From an uncultured virus (IMG/VR IMGVR_UViG_3300005782_000717) (lineage: Duplodnaviria > Heunggongvirae > Uroviricota > Caudoviricetes): a DNA stretch of 64,000 nucleotides. This document shows positions 1,336 through 48,769 of this stretch, piece by piece. Location of the stretch: IMG/VR virus record IMGVR_UViG_3300005782_000717. The stretch is one strand, 5' to 3'. A program made the position numbers and the translations under genes. The notes under the pieces were generated by a model, which was given only the letters and a program-made list of their open reading frames with translations, was not told where the DNA came from and ran no database searches. Positions within the stretch are counted from its first letter, which is position 1. Each line of letters opens with the position of its first letter.

Positions 1336-2334
1336 CTACCCCCAGCCGCCGTTGTGGTTATGGTTATCGCCGTGATACAGCCGGTCCAGCGGGTCGAACT
1401 GGTCATGCTGGGCCAGCGCCTTCCTGATGTCGACAAACCTTGAGTACTTAAGCACCATATCCAGGGTGGAGTGCCCCAGGAGCAACCGCAGGGAATTTAT
1501 GTCTCCCCCGGCCTCGAGGTACCTGGTGGCGAAGTAGTGGCGGAAGCGGTGGGCGCCGCCGCCCGAATTTACTCCCGCCCGCTTTTTTAGCCTCTGTATC
1601 ATTATCTTGACCGCGTACGCCGACATCGGCTGGCCGTCATCGGTCAGCCACAGATCGTCGCCGCCCGGCGTCCTCAAGGTGAGGTATTGCTTGAGAACTT
1701 TCCTCGCCTCCCGGCTTATCGGCACCACCCTGACCTTGGCCCCCTTGCCCATGACCCTGACCTCCTGCAGCCTGGAGTCAAGGGAAGTGAGCCTTATCCC
1801 AGCCAGCTCCTCAAGCCTGAGCCCGGTGGCGACGAAGAGGGAGATGATAGCCCTATTCCTGACGCCCAGGTAGCGATAGCGGAACCTGGCTTCGTCCTCG
1901 CAGAGTGAGAGGAGCGCCCTGACCTCGTCGTCGGAGTAGGGCTCCACCTGCTTGTAGCGGGGCGATCCCAGCTTGAGGCGCCGGGCGGGATTGTCCTTGA
2001 GGTACTCCTCATCTTCAGCCCAGTTAAACAGGGTCTTGACCACCTTGCCGTAGTGGTGGATGGTGGCCGGGGCCGCCGGCTTGGCAGACGAGCGCCGAGC
2101 ATTGGGCCAGCGGTAGCTCTCGGTTGAGACGTAGTCCAGGAACTCCCTGATGTGGCCCCGGGTTATAGCTTCGAGTTCATCGGGCCAGTCCTGGTTCTTG
2201 GCATACCACCGGAAATTGGCCAGCACCATCCGGTAGTATTCCTGTGTTCTCGGGGAGAGGTTGCGCCGGGAGCGAAGGAAGTCGCTGATAATCCCCGACA
2301 GGGTTAATTTCCGTTCCAGTGTTTCGGTTACCAT
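1336..2334 (-). CDS. int: Tyrosine recombinase / integrase
   Basis: TGLRLEEL (R), GKGAK (K), HRFRH (HxxR), LLGHS, KY catalytic motifs; SAM-like N-terminal domain. Confidence 0.95.
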   Translation of the reverse strand: MVTETLERKLTLSGIISDFLRSRRNLSPRTQEYYRMVLANFRWYAKNQDWPDELEAITRGHIREFLDYVSTESYRWPNARRSSAKPAAPATIHHYGKVVKTLFNWAEDEEYLKDNPARRLKLGSPRYKQVEPYSDDEVRALLSLCEDEARFRYRYLGVRNRAIISLFVATGLRLEELAGIRLTSLDSRLQEVRVMGKGAKVRVVPISREARKVLKQYLTLRTPGGDDLWLTDDGQPMSAYAVKIMIQRLKKRAGVNSGGGAHRFRHYFATRYLEAGGDINSLRLLLGHSTLDMVLKYSRFVDIRKALAQHDQFDPLDRLYHGDNHNHNGGWG

Positions 2335-3450: not shown

Positions 3451-3592
3451 TACTTTAGTACCCCATACTTTAGTAATATTTTTTGGTACTATTTTGGTGA
3501 CATTATATCACTCCCCATTGACAAAGTAAACACCCCTGTTGACACCACTCCTGTAAGAGGCTATTGACAAATTGGCTACACTCATTTACAAT
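3451..3592 (+). promoter_or_regulatory. Lysis/lysogeny-type switch region with rightward promoter
   Basis: TTGACA(3564)-17-TACAAT(3587); extra TTGACA at 3518 and 3539; TACTTTAGTA repeated at 3451 and 3467. Confidence 0.65.
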
Positions 3593-3626: not shown

Positions 3627-3842
3627 ATGGAACAGAAGCACCCACTATTTTTTCAGTACACGCGCGATTGGCTACACCAGGTAACAGGCTTCTCCAAGGG
3701 ATACCTAAGCCGGGTGGCTACCGGGAAGATCCCACTCAGTCGTTCCTTCATTGAACGGGTTTGCTTTAAGCTTAAACGGCCCGAGTCAGAGTTGTTCTTG
3801 CCCGATGCACCACGGTCCGATTCTTCTGGACGCGAGCATTAG
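3627..3842 (+). CDS. Cro-like HTH protein
   Basis: WLHQVTGFSKGYLSRVATG HTH, ...ELF tail. Confidence 0.75.
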   Translation: MEQKHPLFFQYTRDWLHQVTGFSKGYLSRVATGKIPLSRSFIERVCFKLKRPESELFLPDAPRSDSSGREH

Positions 3843-3880
3843 TCCGTCATCTACTAGCCTTAACCGTTTAGGGAGTAGCC

Positions 3881-4114
3881 ATGTTCACAGTGAAAAGGGT
3901 CACCACCTTTGAGTATTACTGCCCCAATGGACATACCCTGCCGGAACTAAACCAGAGCCATCGGGCAAGGTTTTGCTATACGTGTGGCCTGCGGCTTGAG
4001 GAGAGACAGGTGCCCTACGATGCTGCCTACTGTACTACTTGCCATAGCCCGGTTAACCCCGAATGGGATTATTGCCCCAACTGTGGTCAAGGGAGGGAGA
4101 ATGGAAAAAGTTAA
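3881..4114 (+). CDS. Double zinc-ribbon protein
   Basis: CPNGH, FCYTCG, CTTCH, YCPNCG. Confidence 0.7.
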   Translation: MFTVKRVTTFEYYCPNGHTLPELNQSHRARFCYTCGLRLEERQVPYDAAYCTTCHSPVNPEWDYCPNCGQGRENGKS

Positions 4115-4376
4115 GACAGAACGAGAGTTGGGCTTTAATGAGCCAGAGGTCGGCTATAAATGGGACGCCGGCAGCACTCCACCGGGAGACAAAGCACCAG
4201 GACGGTGGGCAGTAAGGAGATACCCCGACCACTGGGTGGTGCTATTCCACTCGGTTGATGGGCCTGAGTATATTATCCATGATTTTGAACCGACTGAAGA
4301 GGGGGAGAGAGCAGCCAAGATTATGGCGCTGAAGTTGGTGGATATTGCCTGGGGAAGGGAACCAAGGGAGGAATAA
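4101..4376 (+). CDS. Hypothetical protein
   Basis: RBS GGAGGGAG, ATG at 4101, coupled to the upstream gene. Confidence 0.55.
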   Translation: MEKVKTERELGFNEPEVGYKWDAGSTPPGDKAPGRWAVRRYPDHWVVLFHSVDGPEYIIHDFEPTEEGERAAKIMALKLVDIAWGREPREE

Positions 4377-5149: not shown

Positions 5150-5278
5150 ATGAGTGAGATAGAAAAGCTGCTGGCCGAAATCGAGAAAAGGAGGCGACTG
5201 ATGTTAGGATTTGAGATTGCAATACTTCTTCTCCTCTGCTTCTTGACAGGTTTGGAAGTGTCAAGGCTGAGGTTTTAG
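5150..5278 (+). CDS. 42-aa membrane peptide (not in the ORF track)
   Basis: MSEIEKLLAEIEKRRRLMLGFEIAILLLLCFLTGLEVSRLRF*; the stop abuts the array. Confidence 0.5.
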   Translation: MSEIEKLLAEIEKRRRLMLGFEIAILLLLCFLTGLEVSRLRF

Positions 5279-5690
5279 GAAGCTAGTTCGTATAAGGTAA
5301 CAGAGAGAAGAAGGCGAGCCAGTCTCGATAAGGTAACAGATGAAGGTAGGCGAGCCAGGTTGAGGTAGGCTACAGGACACAGGAGGCGAGCCAGACGATA
5401 AGAGGTAACAGGTAGGAAAAGGCGAGCCAGTTAGCCGCAGGCAACAGATCGAAGAAGGCGAGCCAGGTAACGTTAGGCAACAGAGTACGGAAGGCGAGCC
5501 AGGTTTGGAGAGGCAACAGTTAGTCAAAGGCGAGCCAGGTGCTTTGAGGTAACAGATTGAGAAAGGCGAGCCAGGACAAGCAAGGCAACAGATCGAAGAA
5601 GGCGAGCCAGGCGATGAAAGGCAACAGAAAAACAGAGGCGAGCTAGGCATTTTAAGGTAACAGCGCATTGAAGGCGAGCCAGGACTCCGT
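5277..5690 (+). repeat. TIGR-like dual-repeat / dual-spacer array, 36-nt period, 11 full units plus a partial
   Basis: Units of AGGCGAGCCAG-N8-AGGYAACAG-N8 with exactly constant spacing. Confidence 0.85.
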
Positions 5691-5702
5691 AGAGGGAGCA
5701 GA

Positions 5703-5915
5703 ATGATAACTGATAGGATCGGGAAGAAGATAGCCAAGGTTTCAGCGAAACTCATCACCGACCGGCTGCAGTCCACCGCTTACGAGCAGGTGGTGGAGAA
5801 GTTCTGCCTGAAACGGTGCGGCCGCACCCCTGACGGCGAGCTCTGCGATGAGGCGGAGAGGGTCCACCGGCTGTTTCTTGCCCTCCTTTTTGGGGACTAT
5901 AGCGGGTCGAACTAG
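5703..5915 (+). CDS. Hypothetical protein
   Basis: RBS GAGGGAG at the array end; CxxxC...C. Confidence 0.5.
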   Translation: MITDRIGKKIAKVSAKLITDRLQSTAYEQVVEKFCLKRCGRTPDGELCDEAERVHRLFLALLFGDYSGSN

Positions 5916-5923
5916 GTGATACG

Positions 5924-6745
5924 GTGGCAGAAGAAGTAGTAGAGAAAAAATTAACCGGCCGAGAACTTGCCGAAAGCTTAGCCCGGCAGCTGCAGCTGAG
6001 TGGTTGGATGGCTTGGGTAAACATGCCCATGGGGTCGGTCCTATGGAGCAACCCAGGAATAGCCGATGTAATAGCCATTTCTAAGAGCCACAGCAACACG
6101 ACAGTTAAGGTCTATGAAGTGAAGGCCAGCCGTAATGACTTCTGGACAGACGTAAACAGGGGGAAGTACCTCAGGTACATGAAGGAATGCAACCAGTTCT
6201 ATTTCGCTGCGCCGGCAGGAATGTTGAAGAGGGGGGAGATCCCCCAGGGATGCGGGCTCATCACCCTGGGCGACCATGGCTGGCATGTCCAGATGGGCGC
6301 CCGGAGAAACGAGTGCGAGCTATCGAGGGAATTCCTGATGGCGCTGCTGATAAAGGGCCACCAGGACTATCTACTGAAGATGCGGGCGTTTAAGGACAAG
6401 GATTACTACGAATACCGGGGACTGACCGACGCCGCCGCTAAATATGGCAAGAGGCTGGCCCAGGAACTAGCCATAGGGCCAGAGTACCTTCAAGAAGCCC
6501 AGGAGCTTAGCAAGAAGGTCGGTGAAGCCTTAGGCGAAAACCACGATAGCCTCGATCTCTCGATCTGGAGTCTTCGCCAGAAGGTTTCGGAGCTTCTCAA
6601 CGAGTATAAATTCGCCGAAGAAGTAACTGAGCTCACCAGTATACTGAAGCAGCTATTCCGCGGAAACACCTATCAGGCACCCGAGGCACTCAGGGAAATA
6701 GCCAACAAACTAGAGGCAAAGCGGCAAGGAGGTGAGCATGGCTAA
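5924..6745 (+). CDS. MmcB-like PD-(D/E)XK nuclease with helical C-terminus
   Basis: IADVIAI...YEVKASRNDF..D, FYFAAP, CGLI motifs. Confidence 0.75.
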   Translation: MAEEVVEKKLTGRELAESLARQLQLSGWMAWVNMPMGSVLWSNPGIADVIAISKSHSNTTVKVYEVKASRNDFWTDVNRGKYLRYMKECNQFYFAAPAGMLKRGEIPQGCGLITLGDHGWHVQMGARRNECELSREFLMALLIKGHQDYLLKMRAFKDKDYYEYRGLTDAAAKYGKRLAQELAIGPEYLQEAQELSKKVGEALGENHDSLDLSIWSLRQKVSELLNEYKFAEEVTELTSILKQLFRGNTYQAPEALREIANKLEAKRQGGEHG

Positions 6746-7021
6746 AAGGGCGAAATGCGACAAGTGTAAAATCAAGTGGAATGTCCAGGAAAAAGACCAG
6801 ACCCCGCTTCGGGAGCTTCAATGCCCGTACTGCGGCGGGCCCGTAACACAGATATACTCTCCTTGCAGATATCCCCTAGCCAAGGGAGAGCCTATTCTCA
6901 AATAGGTGAAGGCGAAGATGGTTGAATTGAGAGTTTCTGCCTGAGCCGAGGGCTTTTCAAAATGGTGCTAGACTTTGTGCTGGTCGGCAGCAGGCTCAGG
7001 CACCATAAAGAGTAGCGGTGT

Positions 7022-7097
7022 CGCGGAGTAGAGCAGTGGTCAGCTCGTTGGCCTCATAAGCCGAAGGTCGTGGGTTCGAATCCCACCTCCGCTACCA
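7022..7097 (+). tRNA. tRNA-Met(CAT), initiator-like
   Basis: Full cloverleaf, CTCATAA loop, GTTCGAATC T-loop, encoded CCA, unpaired C1/T72. Confidence 0.9.
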
Positions 7098-7489
7098 GAG
7101 AAAGAGGAGATGGTGGAAAAGGAAGAGAGAGTAGCTAAAAGGGAGATAGTAAAGGTAGAGATAGGAAACGAGGAGTTGGCCGCTGAGATAGAGGATGGGG
7201 AAGTGGTTGGCTTCCGGCCCATCTCGATAGCTCACCTGAATAAAGACAGGCTGGGGTGTATCACCTATATCACGCTTATCGGCAACGCTATGACGAAAAC
7301 GGGGAGGTAACCATGGGTATTGAATTTAGGGTAACTGGCCACGGAATACTTCCTGGTAATCAGATGGTGGGGTGCTGCCGGCATGGGATAACAGCTGGGC
7401 GCCCGATGTTCAGTTACTCTGGTTAAGAATATACGACAAGCTTGTTTAGAGGGAAAATATGACCAGAAATATGCCACTTTGAGGGTATT

Positions 7490-7744
7490 TTGAACGTAGG
7501 AGTTTGGCAAGGGGATAAATATATGAATATACCGGATAGGCTGTACCAGATACTGCAGTTTAACGATAACCTGGCCTTCAGCATTTTAGAGCTGGTCGAC
7601 AGGATACTCGACCGCGTGTGGATCGTCAGGTATTTCAAGGTCCTGCGCGCTTTAGCTAGTCTTGAGAGAAAAGGCCTGATAGATTCAAAACACATCGGCG
7701 GGAGGAAATACTACATCTACAGGAAGGGCGAGCAGTCGAAGTGA
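7490..7744 (+). CDS. Small winged-helix-like protein
   Basis: LASLERKGLIDSKHIGGRKYY wing motif. Confidence 0.5.
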   Translation: MNVGVWQGDKYMNIPDRLYQILQFNDNLAFSILELVDRILDRVWIVRYFKVLRALASLERKGLIDSKHIGGRKYYIYRKGEQSK

Positions 7745-8703
7745 ACGACATGGAAACCCTTAAGCGGGCCTACGAGCGGGAGCACGACTCCCGCGACCGC
7801 CGGCCGCCGCATCTACGCAGCTGGGAGTATTACACCCTGGGAGCTTCCCGCAGTGACATCAAGCGCCTCCTGGACGAGGGGCTTATCACCGTCGCCCTGA
7901 AGACCTCGGCAATAACAAAGTACCGGCTGAGCGATAAGGGGCGCGACCTGGTATGGGCCTTTACTATGGAGCGTGAGTTCGCCAAGATACCGGCCGCCTC
8001 GGTGATGGAGGCCCTAGAGCTGGTTATCGGCTTTGACGACCTCAAGGAGGCCATCGCCCTGGCGGTAGAGGCCCGCCGCCGCATCAACTTCCTGCTTGAG
8101 GGGCCGCCGGCCTGTGCCAAGAGCATCATGCTGGAGGGGGTGCGCTCGGCCGTCCCCGACGCCTATATCGCCTTCGGGTCCCGCACTTCCGCCGCCGGCC
8201 TCTCCGAAGCCCTCTTCGAGCACCAGCCCTCGGTTCTGCTCCTGGACGAGGCGGACAAGATGGATAACGAAGTCTACTCGGTGCTGCTGGGGCTCATGGA
8301 GAGCGGCGAGATTCTGGAAACCAAGAGCCGCAAGACGCGTGGGGTGAAGCTCAACACGATGATTCTGGCCGCCTGCAACAGCTCGGTGAAGATGCCCGGG
8401 GAGTTCCTGTCCCGGTTCGCCCTCCACGTCCACTTCCCCACCTATTCCCGCCAAGAGTTCATCGACGTGTGCCGGGGCTTCATGGCCAAGGCCGAGGGGT
8501 GCCCCAGAGACCTGGCCGGCATCATCGGGCAGCTCATCTATGACTACGGGATAGGCGATGTCCGCAAGGCCAGGGGTGTCTGGCAGCTTATGACCGCCCC
8601 CACCGAGAGCGAGGTTCAGCGGGTCGTCCAGCTGATGCTCAAATATAGCCCAGACCACCGCCGGCTTAAAAAGCCAGCCAAGAACCGGTTGCCCGGGATT
8701 TAG
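7741..8703 (+). CDS. wHTH plus RuvB-like AAA+ ATPase
   Basis: Variant Walker A GPPACAKS, Walker B LLLDEADK, sensor N, FLSRF Arg finger. Confidence 0.8.
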   Translation: MNDMETLKRAYEREHDSRDRRPPHLRSWEYYTLGASRSDIKRLLDEGLITVALKTSAITKYRLSDKGRDLVWAFTMEREFAKIPAASVMEALELVIGFDDLKEAIALAVEARRRINFLLEGPPACAKSIMLEGVRSAVPDAYIAFGSRTSAAGLSEALFEHQPSVLLLDEADKMDNEVYSVLLGLMESGEILETKSRKTRGVKLNTMILAACNSSVKMPGEFLSRFALHVHFPTYSRQEFIDVCRGFMAKAEGCPRDLAGIIGQLIYDYGIGDVRKARGVWQLMTAPTESEVQRVVQLMLKYSPDHRRLKKPAKNRLPGI

Positions 8704-9117
8704 AGGGTGAAATAGGAGGATTTAGACATGGGGCTATTCAGAAACTGTAAAAACTGCGGCCACATCGAGGAAGGGCATGCCATGGACGCCCCTGAGGGAG
8801 AGCGGGTGTGCCTGGAAGAAGACTGCGACTGCGAAAACTTTGAGCCGGAGGATTAGATGCCCTGCACAGCCGATTTTTTTATGACCAGCTGCGGCTCCAT
8901 CTGCCACATCTACAAAAAATACATCGAGGCAGGAGCGGGGGGAGAATTCTACCATGGGGAACTCTGCGGAGGCTGCCTGTGGTGGGAGGATTCCGAAGAA
9001 GACAAGGAGGCCTGGGAGAGAAGAGAGCGGCTCGGGATTAAGAGAAGGTGGTAGCCATGAAAGTCCCGCGTGATGAGCTGAACGACGAGAAATATCAGAT
9101 AAAGGAGAGAAATCAAG

Positions 9118-10287
9118 ATGACAACACAAACAAAAGCAGTCGCAACGCAGCAGAAGGCGGTCGTCAAGTGGAAAGGTGAGCAAATCATCGTCACCTTCAG
9201 TGATGTCAAAAATCTCATCTGCCCCCTGGCCACCGACCAGGAAGCCGCCGTCTTTCTCAAAACCTGCTCCTCACTGTCGTTGAACCCATTCGCTAATGAG
9301 ATTTACTTAATTAAATACTCGGAGAGGGAGAAAGCGGCCACCGTTATCTCGATTGACTCATACCTGAAGGCAGGTGAGGCAAATGACAATTTCAGCGGAT
9401 TTGAGGCTGGCATCGTCCTGAAGGACAGTGGCGGCAAGTTGGAATTCAGGGAAGGCTCATTAATCTTACCAGATGAGGCAGAGAAGTTGGTTGGAGGCTG
9501 GGCCAGGGCATACAGAAAAGATAGGGAGAAGCCATTTTATATAGCCGTCAACAAGGCAGAGTGTGTGAGGTATACCAAAGAGGGCAAACTGACTCGCTTC
9601 TGGACTAAAGAAAAGCAGCCCTCAATGCTCCGGAAGACAGCCCTGAAGCGAGCACTGGTTGAGGCATTTCCATCGCTCTTTGCTGGTACTCTGGCTACTG
9701 CCGAGGTCGGTGATGATATATCCGAAGCCGAATACGAAGAGATACCAGAAGGCACGCTCCCGCCGGCCCTGGAAAAAGGCGGTCAACCGGACTGGAAAAA
9801 GTTCTGGGCCAGGGTAAAGTCCGAGCTCGGCCTTACTACCGAGGAAGCTCGGCTACTCCTACAAGTAGACTCCATCAAAGAGGAATTGATAGACACTGGC
9901 TGGACGATGGAGAAGATATGGGACAATCTAGTGACAGCTTTAAAGCTACAGAAGGCTACCGAGGTCAAGTCTGAACGGGCTCAGGTAGTCGACGTCGAGA
10001 CAGGCGAGATTACTGCCCCGGAAGAAGACCTATTCGGAGAAGAGGAGAAAGCTGGCGTCGCCGCCCCGGCGGAAGCTGAAATAGAGCAACCGACCGGCAC
10101 GGCGGCCCCGGCTAAACCCAAGCGGGACCCGAAGTCCATCAAAACCGTGAATGACCTTCTCAAGGCTTGCAACCAGGACTTTAAGATGCAGCCCAAGCAG
10201 ATCTACGCAGAGCTTAACATCTCGGGGGTGAGGGAGATAACCGACCCAGCGGAGGCATACCAGAAAATAGCAGCGGTGAGAGGTTAG
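9118..10287 (+). CDS. RecT/Bet-family single-strand annealing protein
   Basis: LNPFANEIYLIKY, GGWARAYRKDR, W...PSMLRKTALKRALVEAFP. Confidence 0.9.
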   Translation: MTTQTKAVATQQKAVVKWKGEQIIVTFSDVKNLICPLATDQEAAVFLKTCSSLSLNPFANEIYLIKYSEREKAATVISIDSYLKAGEANDNFSGFEAGIVLKDSGGKLEFREGSLILPDEAEKLVGGWARAYRKDREKPFYIAVNKAECVRYTKEGKLTRFWTKEKQPSMLRKTALKRALVEAFPSLFAGTLATAEVGDDISEAEYEEIPEGTLPPALEKGGQPDWKKFWARVKSELGLTTEEARLLLQVDSIKEELIDTGWTMEKIWDNLVTALKLQKATEVKSERAQVVDVETGEITAPEEDLFGEEEKAGVAAPAEAEIEQPTGTAAPAKPKRDPKSIKTVNDLLKACNQDFKMQPKQIYAELNISGVREITDPAEAYQKIAAVRG

Positions 10288-10438
10288 CGCGTGGGATTCC
10301 CTGAGCAACCAATTACCAGAGAGATGAAATACGGCAAGATCCGCAGGTACAAGTGCCGCTTATGCGGGCGGACCTTCAATGACTACTATCTGCCGGAGGA
10401 GAAAAGGCTGTGTACGAGGTGCGCGAGAGAGGGTAACC

Positions 10439-11389
10439 ATGGCTAGGAGCATCACATCAGAAAGACAGGAGCTGAGGGCTGAGGCCATCCAGTTACGTAA
10501 GGCTGGGTGGAGTCAACCCGAGATTAGCAAAGCATTGGCAGTGCCACAGAAAACACTCAGCAATTGGCTAATTGTGGCTAACTCCGAGGCTAACGATACT
10601 CAGCCATTATCTATTCTGGCTAAAAACTCCAGTATCATAATTAGCCATAATAACCATCGCCCGATAGCCCTATTCCCCTGCAAGTATGAGGAAGTGGGGG
10701 ATGGTATTGCCCCTGGGAGTGTTGACTTAATCCTCACCGACCCGCCCTACTTGGCATCTTCCAGAAACCTGAGTCGCACCCTCCAGAAGACAAACCTGCG
10801 CCGCGACTACGGTAAGTGGGACAAGATACCGCCCCGTCAATATGTCCGTAATGTGGGCACCTGGGCTGGCTTGATGGCACAGCATCTCAAAGAAGGCGGG
10901 GCACTCTATTGTTTTATGGACTTGCGCCAATTATCACTGTGGTGCGATGCCCTCGAGAGAGCCGAACTTACCTATCAAAACTTTATTATCTGGCATCGTG
11001 TCAATCCAGCACCCCAGATGAGGCAGACCAAGTGGTGTCATGCCTTTGACAGTATCCTCTACTTCACTAAGGGAAGCCCCAAGACCTTCAGGTGGTTTGG
11101 CCTCAATAATATGCATAACGTGATTAAGGGACCGATTTGCCAGGGAGCCGAACGCACCTACCACCCCACACAGAAGCCCCGGTGGTTGTTGAGACGGCTG
11201 CTAATGGTCAGCAGCCGTAGTGGCGACACGATCCTTGACTCGTTTGCTGGCTCTGGAGCCACGGCTTTTGCCGGGCATAACTTTGACCATCGCAAATACA
11301 TACTTGTCGAGCCGGACCCGCAATATGCAGGGTTAATACGCGGCAGGGCGAAGGAAGAATTCGATTGGGATGTCACCGTCCATGAATGA
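10439..11389 (+). CDS. HTH-fused DNA N6A/N4C methyltransferase (beta class)
   Basis: LILTDPPY, HPTQKP, ILDSFAGSGAT; N-terminal HTH. Confidence 0.9.
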   Translation: MARSITSERQELRAEAIQLRKAGWSQPEISKALAVPQKTLSNWLIVANSEANDTQPLSILAKNSSIIISHNNHRPIALFPCKYEEVGDGIAPGSVDLILTDPPYLASSRNLSRTLQKTNLRRDYGKWDKIPPRQYVRNVGTWAGLMAQHLKEGGALYCFMDLRQLSLWCDALERAELTYQNFIIWHRVNPAPQMRQTKWCHAFDSILYFTKGSPKTFRWFGLNNMHNVIKGPICQGAERTYHPTQKPRWLLRRLLMVSSRSGDTILDSFAGSGATAFAGHNFDHRKYILVEPDPQYAGLIRGRAKEEFDWDVTVHE

Positions 11390-12767
11390 TTTACCATCAA
11401 CTATAAAATATCCAGAGGCATTCAAGGCATCACTGCCCGCTAGATATGATGGCATTTTCGATTGGTCTTTTCTGTTGCCGATTTTTGAGGGCACAAAGAT
11501 AGAACCGACGGATATTGATGGCATGGTTGAAAGGCGCGGTAAAGTATTACTTATGGAAACGAAAGGACCCGGTGTGCCAATCCCCCAGGGGCAGATTATT
11601 GCATATAAAACACTTCTAACTATTGGCAAGGGGAAGATACACTTGATGATATTTTACGGCAAAACCTCATCTACTATCGAAGGCATGGATGAGTGGTATT
11701 ACAGGGAGGGGGGAATAAAACAACAAGACTACCAAGGATGCGATTGGAATTATGTCTTTGAGAGAGTTAAAGCATGGTTTAACTGGGCAAATAGTAAACC
11801 GGGAAAGCAAAGAAAACTTGATAGCCTACACTATCGCGGAGCCAATATGAGACAAGCCGTTGCCAGGGGAGAGGAAGGTGAAATGCCCAGGGAGCAAGTA
11901 TTGGAGATATGGCAGAGGTCTGGGAGGCCGGCAATTCCTCTAAGACAGGGGGAGACCTGTCGTGACCTTGAAAAGTTTCTTTCGCATTCTAATATCAGCG
12001 ATAGTGACATTGAAGCCATTAAGGCATGGGCTCGGGAAAAGGAGGTAAAAGTGTCAAACGAAAAAGGACATTGCAAGCACGGAGAGTTTATCTTAAGGGA
12101 AGGCTGTCCACAGTGTATGGCGGAAAGGCGGCAACAAGATGATCCGGCAAACACACCTCGGCCATATCACCTGGCGGACGGCGCCATCATCCCCTCCGTC
12201 ACCACCATCCTCAGTGTCCTGGACAAGCCCGGGCTACCTCACTGGGCATGGGAATGTGGCAAGGAAGGATTAGACTACCGCGAGGTAAGAGATACCGCCG
12301 CCAGTGTCGGTACCATAGCCCATTATCTCATCGCCTGCTATCTCAAAGGCGAGACGCCCGATACTGCCGCATGTGCAACAGAGGAAGCGGCGAAGGCAAA
12401 CAACTGCCAGGCCAAATTCAAAAACTGGTTGAAGCTGCACCCCCTCAGTCCAGTGATGATAGAGACGCCCCTGATATCTGAGGAATTCAACTACGGTGGC
12501 ACCCCGGACATTCTCGCCGAGCTTGACGGCGACTTTGTCCTGATAGATTTTAAGACAGGAGGTGGAATTTACGACAGCATGTTTTACCAGCTTGCTGCCT
12601 ACTGGAAGTTGCTTGAAGAACAGGGCTGGCCGGTGGCCAGCGCCAGAATACTGAGAATCAGCGCAGATGATAGTGACTTCGAGGAGGTAGTAAAGACAAA
12701 CCTGGACGTAGAGTGGCAAATATTCCAGCGTTGCCTTGAGATATACCGGCTACAGAAGGGAGGCTAG
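11370..12767 (+). CDS. In-frame tri-partite ORF: PD-(D/E)XK-like domain, small domain, and phage PD-(D/E)XK exonuclease (probable RecT partner)
   Basis: TDIDG...METK; PSVTTIL...GTIAH...GTPD...IDFKTG...QLAAY; internal RBS plus start at 11883 and 12051. Confidence 0.75.
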   Translation: MSPSMNDLPSTIKYPEAFKASLPARYDGIFDWSFLLPIFEGTKIEPTDIDGMVERRGKVLLMETKGPGVPIPQGQIIAYKTLLTIGKGKIHLMIFYGKTSSTIEGMDEWYYREGGIKQQDYQGCDWNYVFERVKAWFNWANSKPGKQRKLDSLHYRGANMRQAVARGEEGEMPREQVLEIWQRSGRPAIPLRQGETCRDLEKFLSHSNISDSDIEAIKAWAREKEVKVSNEKGHCKHGEFILREGCPQCMAERRQQDDPANTPRPYHLADGAIIPSVTTILSVLDKPGLPHWAWECGKEGLDYREVRDTAASVGTIAHYLIACYLKGETPDTAACATEEAAKANNCQAKFKNWLKLHPLSPVMIETPLISEEFNYGGTPDILAELDGDFVLIDFKTGGGIYDSMFYQLAAYWKLLEEQGWPVASARILRISADDSDFEEVVKTNLDVEWQIFQRCLEIYRLQKGG

Positions 12768-12769
12768 AT

Positions 12770-13684
12770 TTGCCAAGAGGACGCCGGCCTCTACCCTGGA
12801 TAAAATTGTGGTTTGACACTATTGGCGACCCAAAGATGGCTCAACTATCAGCCGCAGAGAAGTGGTGCTGGGTTGGTATCCTTCTCCTCGCCGGACAGTC
12901 GCCAGTACGAGGCAAGCTGATGCTCTCCAACTCCAAGCCAATGAACGAAAATGACATTTATAGGGCGCTAAGGTTATCCCCAAAAGAACGGAAATTTTTA
13001 AAAACTTGCATTTCTAAAATGACAGATATGGATTCTCTAAAGTGGAATAATAGTTGTTTAGAGGTTATACATTTTAAGGACCGGCAAGAGGTTTTTGAGT
13101 CTGATTTGATTAATTATCATAAAAAGAAAAGCGCTGAATTAACTCCTGATAAACTCCTGAAAACTCCTGATTTAACTCCTGATTTACTGCAGAAAGAGGG
13201 AGAGGGGAGAGGGGAGAGGAAAGATACTACACCTTTATCTAAAGATAAAGGTGCCCACACCAAGCAAGCTGACCCTGTTGTTAACGAAATATTTGCCGAA
13301 ATGAGAAAGGTTTTAGGCTACAAAGAGCCGCAAGTGTGTGAACCGGGGAGCCCGACCCCTAGAGAAAAAAAAGAGGCAAAAGTGCGTGGCGGGGAGGCTT
13401 TACCCGCAATAGAAGAAAACCAAGCCATGCCGGCGGAGAGCCGTGACCCTATTCCAAACTACGGCAAGGAAGGCCAAGCTATTAAGCGAATGTTGACCCG
13501 GGGCTTTACCCGCGAGGAGATAATGGCTTGCTGGGAAAGCAAGGTATCTCAGCGTGGCGGGGAGTTTGTAAGCATGACCTGGGTTAACGAGGATATCGGC
13601 AAGAAAGGAGCTAAATCAGGTGGAACACATCGGCAAGGCGATAAAGAACCTTCCGCAGAGAGATACAGGCGGGGTCTTGAGTGA
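12770..13684 (+). CDS. Phage replication initiator (replisome-organiser-like)
   Basis: PWIKLW N-terminus, internal iterons, followed by a DnaC-like gene. Confidence 0.75.
   Translation: MPRGRRPLPWIKLWFDTIGDPKMAQLSAAEKWCWVGILLLAGQSPVRGKLMLSNSKPMNENDIYRALRLSPKERKFLKTCISKMTDMDSLKWNNSCLEVIHFKDRQEVFESDLINYHKKKSAELTPDKLLKTPDLTPDLLQKEGEGRGERKDTTPLSKDKGAHTKQADPVVNEIFAEMRKVLGYKEPQVCEPGSPTPREKKEAKVRGGEALPAIEENQAMPAESRDPIPNYGKEGQAIKRMLTRGFTREEIMACWESKVSQRGGEFVSMTWVNEDIGKKGAKSGGTHRQGDKEPSAERYRRGLE
13139..13186 (+). repeat. Iteron-like repeats (candidate origin) inside the initiator gene
   Basis: Four AACTCCTGA copies next to AT-rich sequence. Confidence 0.6.
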
Positions 13685-14381
13685 AGAGCCAGGCGAAGGT
13701 GGGCAATATACCTGTCAGATTTGCCACGATGCCCACTTTGTCCATCCCCACACGGAGGACGGCAAGGTCGACTATTCCAGGGTGGTGGTCTGCCAGTGTG
13801 TGATGGCGAAACTGGAAAGGGAGCGTATGCAAAGCATTCTCAGATACTGCGAGCTGCCCCCCGGGACCGAGCACATGACCCTGGAGAATTTCAAGGTCAG
13901 CCCCCAGCTGCAGGAGGCGTATGACTTAGCCGCTGAGCTCGCCGGTGATGCCGGCGAGATTAGATGGCTTACCCTGTCGTCCGGGGCTGACCGGGGCAAG
14001 ACCCATCTTGCGATAGGGATATGCCGGCAGTGGCTTCGGAGGGGCAAACCAGCTCGCTATGCCTTTGTCCCGCTACTCTTAGAGGAGCTAAGGAGGGGTT
14101 TTGGGGAGGAGGGGGATAGGTCCTACGAGGCCCGTTTTGACCGCTTCCTCAATGTGCCTTTACTCGTCCTGGATGACCTGGGGGCCGAATACCGGACGCC
14201 CTGGGTTCAGGAGAAGTTGGATACCATAATCGACTACAGGCTTATGCATGACCTCCGCCTGGTGGTTACCACCAATACGCCGATGGATGAATTGCCCTTC
14301 CGCATCGCCAGCCGGCTCAAGCGGTCTCCAGGCTCCAGGGTGGCGTTTATTAAGGCGCCAGAGTTCCGGAAGAAGAGGTGA
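13620..14381 (+). CDS. DnaC/IstB-like helicase loader ATPase
   Basis: CxxC...CxC Zn site, GKTHLA, LLVLDDLGAE, TTN, RIASRL. Confidence 0.9.
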   Translation: MEHIGKAIKNLPQRDTGGVLSEEPGEGGQYTCQICHDAHFVHPHTEDGKVDYSRVVVCQCVMAKLERERMQSILRYCELPPGTEHMTLENFKVSPQLQEAYDLAAELAGDAGEIRWLTLSSGADRGKTHLAIGICRQWLRRGKPARYAFVPLLLEELRRGFGEEGDRSYEARFDRFLNVPLLVLDDLGAEYRTPWVQEKLDTIIDYRLMHDLRLVVTTNTPMDELPFRIASRLKRSPGSRVAFIKAPEFRKKR

Positions 14382-14557
14382 ACAATGAGGAGCGAATCCA
14401 TGAGCTGGAGCGGAAGATTGCTACGGTATGTGCCAGGTGCCCTGATGCCAAGTGGCTTATCGGGAGGTTTCAGTGCACGGTGGGTATGAGGCATTGCCAC
14501 AGTAGGAGAGTAAGACGCTGGCTGGATGAGATAAAGAAGCTGGAGGGAAGAGAGTGA
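14378..14557 (+). CDS. 59-aa Cys-containing protein whose 3' end supplies the cassette-junction motif
   Basis: MNNEERIHELERKIATVCARC...RRWLDEIKKLEGRE*; GTGA overlap with the dnaC-like gene. Confidence 0.6.
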   Translation: MNNEERIHELERKIATVCARCPDAKWLIGRFQCTVGMRHCHSRRVRRWLDEIKKLEGRE

Positions 14558-14821
14558 CATTCCAAAATCCAAATACCATAGAGGAAAAAGAAGCAAAAGA
14601 AATTTGTGATTACCTTGGGGTGATAAAACTAAGTAATAGCAAGTGGTTCCGCTTACAGAGGAAGCTTAACCGGATTCGCAATGAGGCGAGGGATGCAGCG
14701 TATGCAGACTTGGGGAAAGGCGTTATTCATTTCTTGGAGAATATAGAAAAAATACCCGAACTAATTAAATCTTCTCGGAGTGAGTAGATGAGATAAAGAG
14801 ACTGGAGGGAGGTTAGAAGCA

Positions 14822-15271
14822 ATGGGGAAAAAGTTGTTAATAAGTTATGCTCAAAAAAGGGAGGAAAAGCCAAAGCCGAAGCCTATAGAAGTAGAAGAAG
14901 TCAGGCATCCTAAAAACATAACCCGAGAATACCAAGTATGGTTAGGACACTGTACTAAGGGGCAATGGTGGTGGCGACATATAGCTTCTCTAAAAGATGT
15001 TAATCATGCCTTTTACATTGCGAAGACTATGCTCGCTGTTTTCTTTTGCTTTATAGAACCAACGCCAGAAAAGTTCTTTTACCAGTATGGCAATTACCTA
15101 ATTTTGTCACCCGATAACAAGCCAGTAGATATGCCAAAGCTATCGAGCATACAACCTGATTTACCTTTCCCGCCAGAAGAGGAAAAGGGAGCTAAAGTCA
15201 CATGGCAAATGCTAGATAAGTTAGGGGACCTCTACGGCGAAATTAAGGTTTCTTACAAAGGTAGAATCTAA
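14822..15271 (+). CDS. Hypothetical cassette protein
   Basis: RBS within the junction motif; AT-richer sequence. Confidence 0.55.
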   Translation: MGKKLLISYAQKREEKPKPKPIEVEEVRHPKNITREYQVWLGHCTKGQWWWRHIASLKDVNHAFYIAKTMLAVFFCFIEPTPEKFFYQYGNYLILSPDNKPVDMPKLSSIQPDLPFPPEEEKGAKVTWQMLDKLGDLYGEIKVSYKGRI

Positions 15272-15344
15272 GGACGCTAGCGGACGATAGTAAGAGTCCT
15301 GCGCTGACTGGCTAAAATAAAGAGACTAGAAGGAGGATTAGAAC

Positions 15345-15983
15345 ATGTGGAAAAAGTATGAGGTCGAGCAGCAGATGACAGGCAGGTTTGCGGCAGCCCT
15401 TCCCAAGGCCAAAGAGGCCATTGAGCAAATGCTGGAGCACCGGATGCCAGCCACCCTGCCGGAGAACTTTACCCCCATAGCTGAACTCACCGAGGAAGTT
15501 GCCGAAAAGGTAGGCGCCCCTGCTGAGGGTGAAGAGGAGGAGGAGGAGCTCAAATATGGCTGGGCTACCTTCCCCCGGAATGAAGAAGGTCTCTACTACG
15601 AGGGGCGCTGTATCCGAGGTCACATTAAGGACTGCGCCAACCAGGTAAAGGATGCCATCGAACCTCCAGTAAAGGCCCTAAAAGCCAAGGTGGCCAACAA
15701 GGTCTATGTGATGACCGATGTTATCCCTCTTGGCGCCAAGGAGATAGGGGGGACAGAACAACGCTTCGTGCAGGTCATGACCCCTAAGGGTCCTAGGTCA
15801 ACCATCAAGTATGTTGACTACTTGGAAAAGCCCACGCTGAAGTTTCGGCTAAACGTGCTTGATGACGGCATCATTACCAGGGAAATTCTCGATGCCATCT
15901 TTGAGTACGGCAGTGTTCATGGTCTCGGCCAGGAAAGAAGTCAAGGATGGGGGCGATACACGTTCATAATCACTGAGCTTTGA
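15345..15983 (+). CDS. Stand-alone Cas7/RAMP-like protein (partner of the TG-NNN array)
   Basis: C-terminal G-rich loop GLGQERSQGWGRY, IRGHIKD helix, RRM-like strand pattern; its TGA stop is the start of the first array repeat. Confidence 0.75.
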   Translation: MWKKYEVEQQMTGRFAAALPKAKEAIEQMLEHRMPATLPENFTPIAELTEEVAEKVGAPAEGEEEEEELKYGWATFPRNEEGLYYEGRCIRGHIKDCANQVKDAIEPPVKALKAKVANKVYVMTDVIPLGAKEIGGTEQRFVQVMTPKGPRSTIKYVDYLEKPTLKFRLNVLDDGIITREILDAIFEYGSVHGLGQERSQGWGRYTFIITEL

Positions 15984-16580
15984 AGCCGAGTACTGAAAAT
16001 GATGTGAGATGGCGTGCTTTGGGCTGAAGCCGAGGGGGGCGATGGCGTGAATTGTATTGCCGTGACTTGAAGCCGAGATGTGAGTTGACATGTACTGAAA
16101 TGGACTGAAGCCGAGGAATGCCGTGAAATGGTTTGGTGTGGTCTGAATTGTGGTGAAGCCGAGTGCTGCACTGGGTTGCACTGTATTGGGTTGGGTTGGA
16201 ACGAAGCCGAGACCTGCCTTGAGATGGGATTGGATGGAATGCCGTGAAGCCGAGACATGAGCTGTAGTGCAACGGGATGACTTGAAGCCGAGGGCTGTGG
16301 TGTTTTGTTCTAGCCTGACGTGCCGTGAAGCCGAGCCGTGAGATGGGCTGCTGTGGGGTGTGGTGAAGCCGAGAAATGGTGTGCCGTGTTTTGCCTTGTA
16401 TTGTTGTGGGTTGGAGCCGAGGACGGTGGTGATTTGCTGGGGACTGAAGGGGGTTGAAGCCGAGATGTGGACTGGCTTGCGGTGGAGTGGCTTGAGGTGC
16501 CATGGAGCCGAGGTGTGAAGTGACGTGAAGTGATTTGCGACTGAAATGAGAATTGGCGTGATAGGGGGTGCGATGTTCTG
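15981..16580 (+). repeat. Repeat-spacer array: 13 x TGAAGCCGAG (variants CGAAGCCGAG, TGGAGCCGAG) with NNN(TG-NNN)n spacers
   Basis: Repeats at 15981, 16025, 16068, 16106, 16154, 16202, 16245, 16283, 16326, 16364, 16412, 16455, 16503. Confidence 0.9.
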
Positions 16581-16642
16581 GCACTGGCTGGCTGAGATAA
16601 AGAAACTGGGAGGTGAGCAAGCGAAGAATTAATCAGGTTCAT

Positions 16643-16712
16643 GGCAAGGTGCGGCGTGGTGGGGCCTGGTACGGTCCGGTGCGGCAAGGTAAGGCGCGGC
16701 AAGACAAGGAGA
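16643..16712 (+). ncRNA. (GGY-NN)n tract 1, vrRNA-like
   Basis: 12 perfect GGY-NN pentamers, then GAC/GGA end. Confidence 0.8.
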
Positions 16713-16734
16713 ATAAAAACAAGGAGGAAAAGAA

Positions 16735-17397
16735 ATGGATAAAGTGAAGTCAGCAGCAATAGAGGCCATAGAAGACACAGGTTTTTGGTCAGAATATATT
16801 CTCAAAATGCTTATAGAGGGCATAACTCCATTTTTGCAGAATAGCCCCAAAAATATGAAAGCAAAGGAACCAGGAATTAAAAGAGAAAAAACCTATGACC
16901 CAGAGATAGAAGCAGAAAAAGTTACCTATCGTCGAGATGACGGCACTTTGGGCTTCCCGGCGGATGCAGTGAGAAAATGTTTGATAGGCGGTGCTACTGG
17001 GCTAAAGATTGGAAACAGGTTTGCCTCAACGGTGCTGCCTGAGATTATCGGCCACTTCCCGCCGCTTGAAGGCGACGAGCTTTTTCCGTTTGAGACCTTG
17101 GAAGGAGAACCCATCAGCGATTATGAAATAGATACCAGGCGTGCAGTTAGAGGGCGACAGGGAGTTCTTGTTAGCAGGCCAAAGATTTGGCCATGGCGGT
17201 TGCGCTGCACCTTGAAACTGACAGTACCTGTTGGCACTGATATGGATGGTTTAAGAAGTGACCTTCTTCGGATAGCTAACAAGGCAGGGCAATATCCCGG
17301 TTTGGGCGATGGCCGCCCCCAGAAGATTAAGGGGAAGGGGCTCTGGTTTGGTAAGTCTAGGGTAGTTGAGCTGGAGATAGAGCCTCTGGAGGAGTAG
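16735..17397 (+). CDS. Vipr-like RAMP (Cas7-related) protein
   Basis: IEGITPFLQN, Y...DGTLGFP, RRAVR...SRPKIWPW, AG..PGLGDGRP...FGK G-loop; flanked by GGY-NN tracts. Confidence 0.8.
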   Translation: MDKVKSAAIEAIEDTGFWSEYILKMLIEGITPFLQNSPKNMKAKEPGIKREKTYDPEIEAEKVTYRRDDGTLGFPADAVRKCLIGGATGLKIGNRFASTVLPEIIGHFPPLEGDELFPFETLEGEPISDYEIDTRRAVRGRQGVLVSRPKIWPWRLRCTLKLTVPVGTDMDGLRSDLLRIANKAGQYPGLGDGRPQKIKGKGLWFGKSRVVELEIEPLEE

Positions 17398-17400
17398 CCC

Positions 17401-17638
17401 GGTCTGGCAAGGCCAGGTCAGGTGTGGTAAGGCAAGGCATAGTGAGGCAAGGCAAGGTTTTAACCGAAAGCAATATAACGGGGCGCGGTTCGGTGAGGTT
17501 AGGCCGGGTCCGGTGGGGTCTGGCTTGGCACGGTAAGGCAAGGCGCGGCACGGATTAAATTGAGAAAGGGATCGGCAGAATCTGGTGCGGCATGGCTAGG
17601 CCAGGCGTGGCAAGGCGTGGCAAGGCAAGGTGCGGAGA
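17401..17638 (+). ncRNA. (GGY-NN)n tracts 2-4, vrRNA-like
   Basis: 17401-17460 (12 units, one AGT), 17482-17551 (14), 17584-17633 (10), separated by A-rich linkers. Confidence 0.85.
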
Positions 17639-17658
17639 AATAAAATGAGGGGGCAGAT

Positions 17659-18336
17659 ATGAAAGAGACAGCACAAAAGGTGAAAATAACGAAGCTGCTA
17701 TTAGACTACAACCTTTATCCCAGGGAGCAAATTCAATCATTTCATGTCAGGCAGATGGTTGAGGCATTGGAGGCTGGAACTATTTTGCCGCCTATCATTG
17801 TTGATAGGAAGAGCAAGCGGGTGGTAGACGGCTTTCACCGAGTACGGGCACACCGGAAGCTATATGGCAAGGACGCTGAGGTTTCCGCTATTTTTAGGAC
17901 TTATGAGGGCGAGACGCAGATGTTTATAGAGGCTATAGCTCTCAATGCTACACACGGCAGAAATTTGACTCCCTACGACCGGGCTAGATGTCTAGCTCGG
18001 GCCGAAGAGCTCAAGATGGACCCAGCGGTTGTGGCGAAGGCATTGAACATGACCGTCGAGACCCTGGGCAGGCTTAAAACAGAGCGTCTGGGGTACTTCC
18101 ATACAAAGCCGATAGTGCTCAAGCGAACCACCGCCCACCTGGCTGGCGAGGAATTGACTGAGGAGCAGTTCGCCTATAACCGGCAGGCCGGCGGCATGCA
18201 GTCAACCTTCTATATTAAGCAGATTATTGGCATGCTGGAGGCGGAGGCTATTGATTGGGAAGACGAGAAGGTGGTTAAAGCCCTGAAGCATTTGCATCAG
18301 CTATTAGATGAGGCAATGAAGCCTATCGGAGTGTAG
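17659..18336 (+). CDS. ParB/Srx N-terminal domain protein
   Basis: YPR, LPPIIVD...VVDGFHRVRA, NATHGRNL. Confidence 0.85.
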   Translation: MKETAQKVKITKLLLDYNLYPREQIQSFHVRQMVEALEAGTILPPIIVDRKSKRVVDGFHRVRAHRKLYGKDAEVSAIFRTYEGETQMFIEAIALNATHGRNLTPYDRARCLARAEELKMDPAVVAKALNMTVETLGRLKTERLGYFHTKPIVLKRTTAHLAGEELTEEQFAYNRQAGGMQSTFYIKQIIGMLEAEAIDWEDEKVVKALKHLHQLLDEAMKPIGV

Positions 18337-18341
18337 TGCTT

Positions 18342-18532
18342 GGTGAGGTGAGGCAAGGTGGGGTGGGGTAAGGCACGGTACGGCCAGGTCTGGTATGGCC
18401 CGGCGTGGTGAGGCAAGGCATGGAATTACAGTATTACTAAAAGGCGCGGTCGGGCACGGTGTGGTCAGGCTAGGTCAGGTCAGGTCGGGCATGGCTTGGT
18501 TCGGTCAGGTTGGGCAAGGCACGACGCGGAGT
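18342..18532 (+). ncRNA. (GGY-NN)n tracts 5-6, vrRNA-like
   Basis: 18342-18421 (16 units), 18443-18522 (16 units). Confidence 0.85.
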
Positions 18533-18960
18533 TAACGAGGTGCCGCTGGCTGGCTGAGATAAAAAGACAGGAAGGAGGTTAAAAGTGGAGAAACCGACAA
18601 AGGGCGAGTTGATAATAAAGCTTGATGAAGTGGATAAGATCATCAGGGACAGGCTGTTTGCCAACCCGGACCCGGTAGAGCTAGAAACCCTGCTGGCGAT
18701 TCGGGCAAAGCAGCAGGAGCTGATGAACTTGGTGCTGGCGATGTGATCGAGGTCAAGGTCAAACGTTTACAGTGTTTCGCCTGCGGGATTAGCATTGGCC
18801 CCGGATATAAGGAGACCTTTCCCAGCAAGGTGGGCGACAAGACGCTTTGTGGCCAGTGCCATGCCATGCTAAAGAAGCAGGGGTATATTCAACTGGACAG
18901 GGAGAGGAGGTTGCTGCCTGATGGCACGGTAATCAGATTTGTACAGGGGGTAAAAGCATT

Positions 18961-46783: not shown

Positions 46784-47710
46784 TCAATGCTGCAGCAGGC
46801 TGCTCCTGATGGTATCGTGGATAAACTCTCTGGTGATGGGGCAGCTCTCCAGGTCGCTGGGGAAGTCATCCCCTTCCAAATAGGGGGCGAAGGAGGAGGC
46901 TATCTTGGCAAACTGAGCCTCGATCAGGGTTGGCCTGAAATCAGGTTCAATCTTCATATCAATCATTATGAACTCCCCAGCCCACTCTACCAGCTGTCCC
47001 AGGGTCGGTGGATTGGGGTCGGTGAGCCAGAATGTCCCCTCTTTATCAATGTTCGCCATGGCCTCGGCCACCGCATCTACGGTGACCAGGTTGAGCTTGC
47101 CTTCGGGGTTGCCCTTGATTCTGAACACTGGTTCGATGACTGGTAGTCGCAAAGTACCCTCGAGATTCCTCCGGATAAGCTCCGCCCTCTGGTGAATTCT
47201 GACCACCAAGGAGATAAACTGGGAGAAGTGCCCCGGGTAGGGGTGTTCGGTGGTGCCCATAATTATCGATGGCTTGAATATGGTGGTCTTTAACCCCTGT
47301 CTTTCCCGGTATTTCCGAATATGCTCTTCGTTTGTTATCTTTGACCTCCCGTAGGGGTTGCGCTCCAGGGTGTAGGCCGTGGAGGCGAAGAAGACTCTGG
47401 GGATGTCATGGCGCACGCAGAAGTCGAGCACGTTCTGGGTACCGTCCACATTGGTACTCTTTATCGAGCCATCTTTATCCTCCTGGCGAAGGCTGTGAAT
47501 ACCAGCCAGATGGTAGATGGCATGAATATCCTTGGGCACTGTATCAAGGCCAAGGTTAGGCTCGGTAATATCCCCCACCAGAGGGATAAGATTTTTAGCC
47601 GAGGCAGGGGGATGGCGTGAGAGAGAGTAAATACGATGGCCTTTCTTTAGTAAGCGCCGAGTAAGTACACTTCCTACAAATCCTGAACCGCCAGTTACCA
47701 AGATAGCCAT
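46784..47710 (-). CDS. Extended SDR / thioester-reductase-like NAD(P)-dependent enzyme
   Basis: LVTGGSGFVG, GDIT, HLAG, NVDGT, YGRSK. Confidence 0.85.
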   Translation of the reverse strand: MAILVTGGSGFVGSVLTRRLLKKGHRIYSLSRHPPASAKNLIPLVGDITEPNLGLDTVPKDIHAIYHLAGIHSLRQEDKDGSIKSTNVDGTQNVLDFCVRHDIPRVFFASTAYTLERNPYGRSKITNEEHIRKYRERQGLKTTIFKPSIIMGTTEHPYPGHFSQFISLVVRIHQRAELIRRNLEGTLRLPVIEPVFRIKGNPEGKLNLVTVDAVAEAMANIDKEGTFWLTDPNPPTLGQLVEWAGEFIMIDMKIEPDFRPTLIEAQFAKIASSFAPYLEGDDFPSDLESCPITREFIHDTIRSSLLQH

Positions 47711-47724
47711 GGTACCTCCTTGTC

Positions 47725-48768: not shown

Positions 48769-48769
48769 T

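Follow-up and report, generated by a model that had tools for sequence, protein, structure and literature searches.

Three probable RNA-guide modules, with two pentamer codes side by side, in the early operon of a prophage-like element

Two classes of compact RNA-guided DNA binders, VIPR and TIGR-Tas, came to light very recently; both are free of a protospacer-adjacent motif (PAM). VIPR systems pair phage-encoded Vipr proteins, which are RAMPs (repeat-associated mysterious proteins), with guide RNAs (vrRNAs) of 9-16 GGY/NN (YNNGG) repeats; Vipr holds GGY, the NN pairs read double-stranded DNA with one base skipped, and the outcome is transcriptional silencing of competing phages and satellites (10.64898/2026.04.26.720920). 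TIGR (tandem interspaced guide RNA) systems are defined by 36-nucleotide (nt) units and tigRNAs, with two alternating 8-12-nt repeats that share start and end motifs (edge and loop repeats), two short spacers per unit, and an adjacent gene for a Nop-domain Tas protein (PMC12045711). Here we analyse a 64,000-nt stretch of DNA from an uncultured virus of the Caudoviricetes (IMG/VR IMGVR_UViG_3300005782_000717), which we call the window. The element is prophage-like and comes from a marine sediment metagenome, and its early operon probably encodes three RNA-guide modules: a TIGR-type array (module A), a distant Vipr-like RAMP followed by an array built on UG (module B), and a canonical VIPR system (module C). 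Systems of the VIPR and TIGR kinds were already described in 2025-26; new here are a UG/NNN code, two codes side by side, and a TIGR-like array without Tas.

In the SUSP1 structure one protomer sits on each pentamer, and residues D177, W178 and R179 of the loop rich in glycine (G-loop), together with R138 of the thumb, read GGY, with the loop D and R reading G1 and Y3 (10.64898/2026.04.26.720927). Variation on the GGY/NN theme is also on record: alternative repeats NNNGG, YNNNG and NNNNG and "staggered" arrays appear in the Methods of the VIPR preprint (10.64898/2026.04.26.720920), and non-canonical fixed triplets GAC, CAC, WGT and TGH, each with NN, were fitted under a forced XYZNN model (10.64898/2026.10.21.760802).

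The original prediction placed three distinct array architectures on one strand of a viral early operon, and this description is accurate. The early/replication operon runs rightward on the + strand from ~3.6 to 22 kb, and the TIGR-like array (array A), the UG array (array B) and the GGY/NN tracts all lie on the + strand, co-oriented with it. All three are far beyond chance: GGY tracts of at least six units number six on the + strand and none on the - strand (mean 0.00 in 100 local-composition shuffles), and TG runs number 11 and none, respectively (mean 0.07 in the same number of shuffles).

Module B (15345-16587) joins a gene to an array with no gap between them. The gene, a real open reading frame (ORF) on the + strand (15345-15983), encodes a 212-amino-acid (aa) Vipr-like RAMP (family 1); array B (15984-16587, + strand) begins right at its stop codon (15981-15983). 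The array holds 13 eight-nt marks (NAGCCGAG) between (NNNUG)n guides of 6-8 pentamers, and closes with a last, unmarked unit. The mark is mostly AAGCCGAG, the 13 cores fit AG[CT]CGAG, and 11 of the 12 inter-mark intervals are multiples of 5 nt, made of chains of NNNTG pentamers. The same arrangement recurs among 80 metagenome loci fetched with the family-1 alignment, a few of them redundant copies. A UG-periodic array lies at most 600 nt downstream of the family-1 gene in 63 of these loci and at most 1200 nt upstream in nine, always on the gene's strand; in the remainder, seven contigs break off less than 150 nt past the gene's end and one locus (L038) has its arrays ~900 nt downstream. UG/NNN arrays thus accompany the 212-aa family in 73 of the 73 loci that are informative.

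This linkage bears on whether the pentamer tracts are RNA guides at all, or are instead arrays of protein-binding sites in DNA, for instance a centromere or iterons serving ParB-like or replication proteins. A ParB-like gene does lie inside the GGY/NN tracts, and the region is a replication module. Yet strand asymmetry is strict: in each of the 72 loci where an array adjoins the RAMP gene (63 downstream, nine upstream) the two share an orientation, and on the opposite strand none of 126 control pieces reached threshold. Moreover, a period of 5 bp amounts to half a turn of DNA, none of the 80 loci places a ParB neighbour beside array B, and for the homologous SUSP1 tracts the VIPR preprints report transcription, co-purification with Vipr and a structure solved as RNA. 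We therefore regard binding sites in DNA as a very improbable explanation. The guide-RNA reading, which the original prediction had put forward, draws strong support from homology and from gene-array linkage.

Pooling the loci defines the code of array B. Among 569 unique spacers T makes up 91% of position 4 and G 98% of position 5, and all four bases occur at positions 1-3; the fixed part is therefore the dinucleotide UG, and three bases vary, so that the unit is NNN + UG and not GGY/NN. Cytosine is depleted, at 14-20%, at all three variable positions. Across all loci 711 of 796 inter-mark intervals are multiples of five, most often 20-30 nt (4-6 pentamers), and guide length in family 1 spans 4-11 pentamers. 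Possibly only two of the variable bases are read, as for TGH/NN in the Evo-PIN preprint. The base after UG is A in 36, C in 14, G in 31 and T in 18% of the unique spacers, however, and G at 31% makes this position N, not H; in addition, the ~12-24 variable bases per guide come near those of canonical vrRNAs only if all three count. A text search of the preprints for NNNUG, UGNNN or the 8-nt mark returned nothing relevant, although figures and data tables lay outside that search and a prior depiction is possible.

The mark drifts slowly with protein distance, from AAGCCGAG through GAGCCGAG and TAGTCGAG to AAGACAAG at 42% identity, where periodicity is looser. At two such distant loci (L092 and L096, ~3650-4300; 42% identity to the 212-aa protein) the marks are AAGACAAG or AAGTCAAG and TG periodicity is much looser, being found mainly at the 3' end of the unit. 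By analogy with the published systems, we propose that the distant Vipr-like RAMP of module B is co-transcribed with ~13 short guides, each of 6-8 pentamers with UG fixed and three bases varying and each ending in the mark AAGCCGAG. The 212-aa protein would form a filament on this RNA, holding UG and exposing three bases per protomer, and the 8-nt mark could be a handle or a cut site if the transcript is processed.

The 212-aa protein has a Cas7/Csm3 fold in its predicted structure. The AlphaFold model (predicted local distance difference test, pLDDT, 75.7) finds Cas7/Csm3 chains of type VII and type III complexes in Foldseek, with a best E of 2.8e-7 and 128 chains at E<=0.001, and carries the G-loop GLGQERSQGWGRY. 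No Pfam family covers the protein and no match to it was found in cultured phages. The four structural matches at E<=0.001 in BFVD are all viral (metagenomic phages and an archaeal virus), one of them named RAMP superfamily protein and three unnamed. Family 1 is large, with 1196 clusters at 50% identity (E<=0.001) and, in a word-indexed search, 311 matches at E<=0.001 in a metagenome/genome protein collection. The Atlas clusters nearest to it are 89-100% viral, counting members with a taxon record, and where the phylum is known all are Uroviricota. Cluster look-ups aimed at linking family 1 to the UniProt seeds that the VIPR preprint names returned different accessions. The modelled fold, together with the profile alignment described below, suggests that the 212-aa protein is a Vipr-type RAMP.

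Module C (16643-18549), by its sequence and layout, is a canonical VIPR system. Its 220-aa Vipr (family 2; 16735-17397, + strand) was recognised by phrog_4652, by its AlphaFold model and by a match to the SUSP1 Vipr, and has the G-loop GLGDGRP. The family-2 profile (A2) aligns to PDB 36pp_D, "SUSP1 Vipr protein", at E 7.9e-5 over residues 34-194, an alignment that takes in helix 1, the thumb and the G-loop GxGDxRP. The model (pLDDT 82.9) again matches Cas7/Csm3 chains of type VII and type III complexes (best Foldseek E 1.4e-5; 100 chains at E<=0.001), and no Pfam family covers the protein. This minimal, Vipr-homologous RAMP is flanked by GGY/NN tracts within the published range of 9-16 units. 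Upstream, vrRNA 1 (16643-16734) has 12 GGY/NN units (tract 16643-16702) and an A/T-rich tail; vrRNAs 2-4 follow the gene (17401-17658), with tracts of 12, 14 and 12 units (17401-17460, 17482-17551 and 17574-17633) and short tails; and vrRNAs 5-6 (18342-18549) have two tracts of 16 units each (18342-18421 and 18443-18522), also with short tails, all on the + strand. Units with GGY number, in order, 12/12, 11/12, 14/14, 11/12, 16/16 and 16/16. Taking all units together, 80/82 have G at position 1 and 81/82 have G at position 2; position 3 is split between C (42) and T (40), and positions 4-5 vary. Each tract ends GGCAA-GGCRN-GGA, followed by ~20 A/T-rich nt.

Between the second and third groups of vrRNAs lies a ParB-like gene (17659-18336, + strand; PHROGs, NCBIfam). 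Such a gene adjoins the family-2 gene in six of six relatives (L001, L082-L085 and L086), as expected of an accessory (vap) gene, and we propose that its product is an accessory of module C. The 220-aa family goes with GGY/NN tracts in five of these six relatives. The sixth (L085:5350-5770), which encodes a Vipr relative 34% identical beside its ParB-like neighbour, has GTC/NN units of ~11 pentamers with a GTGCC mark between them, and the fixed motif therefore shifts within the family-2 lineage. A closer relative (L086; Vipr 66-71% identical) repeats the layout of the window, with 1 + 2 + 2 vrRNAs compared to 1 + 3 + 2. By the published model, the 220-aa Vipr would polymerise along each of the six vrRNAs, one protomer per pentamer, hold GGY and expose NN, and the filament would bind double-stranded DNA by the gapped rule and silence it. 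A role of these modules in competition between viruses, and against competing mobile elements, is suggested by published experiments on homologous systems (10.64898/2026.04.26.720920, 10.64898/2026.10.15.759431).

Two adjacent and very divergent RAMP genes, each with its own pentamer code, had been predicted for this region, and both the divergence and the family-specific arrays of relatives bear this out. Pairwise BLASTP of the 212-aa and 220-aa proteins finds no similarity. A broad family-1 profile (A4, 79 diverse members) does align to the family-2 profile, at an hhalign probability of 96% (E 3.9e-9, 144 columns), and both proteins end in a glycine-rich loop; from the profile alignments we conclude that they are distant homologs within one RAMP lineage. 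The family-1 loop GLGQERSQGWGRY differs from the GGY-reading GDxRP loop, and this difference would be an obvious candidate for the determinant of the code. Pairing of this kind may be unusual: the Methods of the VIPR preprint count 667 systems on 664 representative loci (10.64898/2026.04.26.720920), loci with two VIPR systems look rare, and we saw no dual-system locus among the related loci fetched.

Invariance of the arrays among relatives would have counted against the original prediction, but the array content turns over. No counterpart (<=20% mismatches) to 10 of the 12 array-B spacers of the window exists in the 80 related loci, and the NN strings of the vrRNAs in the window and in L086 have none in common (pentamer lists compared by eye). 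One array-B unit behaves differently. The degenerate unit at 16422-16456, whose pentamers mix GG and TG, recurs with 1-3 changes in five loci (L004, L005, L011, L012 and L022) and with six changes in L040; it may act as a guide to a conserved target, or its role may be structural.

A whole module appears to move as well. A 19-nt element, CTGGCTGAGATAAAGAAAC, occurs with at most three mismatches in four + strand copies in the window, against 0.02 expected: at 14522-14540, at 15308-15326 upstream of the 212-aa gene, and at the left (16588-16606) and right (18550-18568) edges of the GGY/NN cassette. Each copy lies ~30 nt ahead of the start of a gene or module. In L056, whose family-1 protein is 85% identical, array B runs straight into the genes that in the window follow 18568, and the cassette is absent. 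Contigs of other metagenomes are joined at copies of the element: those from two other sediment studies link 16581 to 18544 and 16557 to 18559, and one contig links 15325 to 18567. These joints give weak support, because their sides span only 34, 34 and 21 nt at >=85% likeness. Taken together, the bracketing copies, L056 and the joints indicate that module C behaves as a cassette gained or lost at the element, which may be a module junction or a leader. In L086:142-215, from a metagenome-assembled genome labelled Thermotogales, a short ORF ahead of the GGY/NN cassette has the same first 17 nt as the 212-aa gene, and may be what is left of a module B since lost.

We searched for targets of all three arrays on both strands of the window and the fetched loci, ~0.8 Mb of local sequence. 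Eleven array-B guides of the window, with skips of 0, 1 or 2 and in both orientations, gave best non-self scores of 13-18 of 18-24, and 150 UG/NNN guides from all loci gave a mean score of 0.752-0.759 for real and 0.753-0.757 for shuffled guides. With 11 GGY/NN guides (window and L086) and skips of 0-3, the top score by the 1-nt rule was 19/24, equal to shuffles, and no NN match reached 80%. Spacer pairs of array A under the two-strand TIGR rule scored 13-14 of 16, compared to 13-16 for shuffles. The predicted convergence of targets on one competitor element was accordingly not seen, in a local set of ~0.8 Mb that does not take in the likely targets.

Module B might form an RNA-protein filament that does not target DNA, with the RNAs acting as decoys, sponges or RNA-targeting guides. 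The lack of targets under skips of 0, 1 and 2 fits this, as do the cytosine depletion at the three variable positions, the shortness of the guides, the one unit conserved across phages while the rest turn over, and the published action of solo vrRNAs as decoys. High turnover, on the other hand, looks like an arms race over specificity. We consider this explanation, taken together with the two-base reading weighed above, improbable, and favour DNA targeting by module B guides.

Several results weigh against three functional guide modules in this operon. The real guides of all three arrays scored as shuffled ones do, and no target was found in the local ~0.8 Mb; this null carries little weight, since the mobile elements that share the host, which are the likely targets, lie outside the set. 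No RNA sequencing run containing 15300-18600 was found. (Contigs of other runs at >=85% likeness leave parts of the arrays without cover and are not used as evidence.) For module B, a narrow family-1 profile (A1) aligns to the family-2 profile with an hhalign probability of just 7.5%, and neither the narrow nor the broad family-1 profile matches the solved SUSP1 Vipr at sequence level. For module A, Pfam, NCBIfam, PHROGs, PDB-sequence and Atlas searches of the window's ORFs (64 kb), sequence methods that may miss Tas, turned up no Nop/Tas protein; array A therefore lacks one defining TIGR feature, at least within 64 kb.

In its layout array A (5295-5690, + strand) follows the TIGR plan. Its 11 units are each exactly 36 nt, of the form AGGYAACAG, eight variable nt, AGGCGAGCCAG, eight variable nt, so that repeats of 9 and 11 nt alternate and two short spacers, of 8 nt, fall in each unit. 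Both repeats start with AGGY and end with CAG, common motifs analogous to box D and box C, as expected for binding by a symmetric dimer. No match to array A was found in cultured phages, and the repeat pattern is absent from the viral contigs searched. An array of the same type does occur in L029, directly after array B. A 273-aa protein next to array A was considered as Tas and rejected, being an ordinary phage MmcB-family protein. The - strand frame across array A reads as a "protein" with a 12-residue period, and array-crossing frames of this kind could be mis-called as genes; long - strand ORFs at 5261-5776, 15970-16620 and 16310-16759 were likewise rejected as genes, as by-products of repeats.

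We propose that module A is a TIGR-type dual-spacer array whose effector would be encoded outside the window. Tas may sit on a part of the contig beyond it, and the longest contig with a protein identical to the 212-aa RAMP is ~130 kb, of which 64 kb were searchable. Pfam can also miss Tas, since Tas was originally found by custom profiles and structure mining (PMC12045711). Another possibility is an orphan array A that lacks a Tas belonging to it: a relic, an array served in trans by the Tas of the host or of a co-resident element, or one bound by a non-Nop phage protein. Such an orphan would fit a 64-kb window without a Nop gene, and also L029, where the ORF after the array appears tyrosine-recombinase-like and not Tas (from reading of the translation only); VIPR offers a precedent in orphan vrRNAs that exploit a rival's Vipr. 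As for a relic, 11 perfectly phased units argue against decay. We hold an orphan array to be a real possibility that falls somewhat short of probable.

The surroundings of the modules are those of a phage. Four sequencing runs match all sampled words of 15300-18600, and each is labelled "marine sediment metagenome". An integrase gene lies at 1336-2334 (- strand; Pfam). At the head of the early operon a sigma-70-like promoter, TTGACA-17-TACAAT (3564-3592, + strand), agrees with 11 of 12 consensus positions; it is a consensus match only, as such sites are region-wide no more numerous than shuffles would give. Operon products include a helix-turn-helix protein, an MmcB-like nuclease, an MCM-like ATPase, RecT, a DNA methylase and a PD-(D/E)XK exonuclease, and further a DnaC-like loader, the ParB-like protein and two proteins that contain a Pol-beta thumb domain and a DnaJ domain, respectively. 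Within the operon there is also a tRNA-Met gene (anticodon CAT; 7022-7097, + strand). No hammerhead or other Rfam family was found within the arrays. Elsewhere, a 684-aa protein (54847-56901, + strand) contains an intein with a LAGLIDADG homing-endonuclease domain. An S-adenosylmethionine (SAM) riboswitch (62830-62936, - strand; 53.5 bits) and genes for an epimerase, a type III polyketide synthase-like enzyme and a UbiA-like prenyltransferase (46784-49660) look like host or auxiliary genes beside the phage.

Two Vipr paralogs with different fixed motifs in one natural locus give a direct handle on the determinant of the code: the two proteins can be compared in their G-loop and thumb residues, and array swaps would probe orthogonality. 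If real, a code of three bases per protomer would let each subunit carry more specificity than the published code does, and its guides would be shorter. Both the cassette behaviour and the TIGR-like array without Tas bear on how phages trade such weapons. Tentatively, and with more doubt than conviction, we put forward a bolder scheme. UG/NNN would be a second non-contiguous code, with three bases per protomer and a skip rule unlike the 1-nt rule, running beside GGY/NN without cross-talk, with the G-loops (GQERS vs GDxRP) setting the code; cassettes would be swapped at the 19-nt element; and orphan array A would borrow Tas in trans, as orphan vrRNAs borrow a rival's Vipr.

The Cas7 backbones of Class 1 CRISPR systems (type III Csm3 and type VII Cas7) are the best structural matches of both RAMPs, and are likewise proteins with an RNA recognition motif (RRM), thumb and G-loop that coat guide RNA periodically; the period here is 5 nt instead of 6, however, and the proteins are phage-borne. 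Pfam scans found no cas partners (Cas5, large subunit, Cas1/2) and no adaptation genes, and there are no CRISPR repeats, the arrays having periods of 5 and 36 nt without repeats of 25-40 nt. With TIGR-Tas (PMC12045711) module A shares the 36-nt unit, two alternating short repeats with common ends, two short spacers, 5-15 units and a phage context, and a ParB-like gene accompanies some TasA loci (PMC12045711). It differs in that the window has no recognised gene for a Nop-domain Tas, in repeat termini of AGGY...CAG where TasR arrays have UG...CCA, and in 8-nt spacers, as in SpTIGR, instead of 9.

Module B and the GTC/NN arrays of L085 resemble the non-canonical VIPR arrays as the preprints present them (10.64898/2026.04.26.720920, 10.64898/2026.10.21.760802), with a five-nt period, a Vipr-like fold encoded beside the array and guides that abut without spacers, and are of this sort; module B differs in fixing a dinucleotide, UG, and varying three positions, and in its short guides (4-11 pentamers) with a conserved 8-nt mark between them. 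Module C resembles the type II VIPR of SUSP1 as set out in the two preprints (10.64898/2026.04.26.720920, 10.64898/2026.04.26.720927): a phage-encoded solo RAMP, one DNA-binding accessory gene, flanking vrRNAs of 9-16 GGY/NN pentamers, each here with a putative 3' tail, and the G-loop GxGDxRP. It departs from SUSP1 in its tails, which are short and A/T-rich (~20 nt after the terminal GGA unit) where SUSP1 has a pseudoknot; in its accessory, which is ParB-like and is not assigned to any of vap1-6 as these are named in the preprints; and in its six vrRNAs, compared to four in SUSP1.

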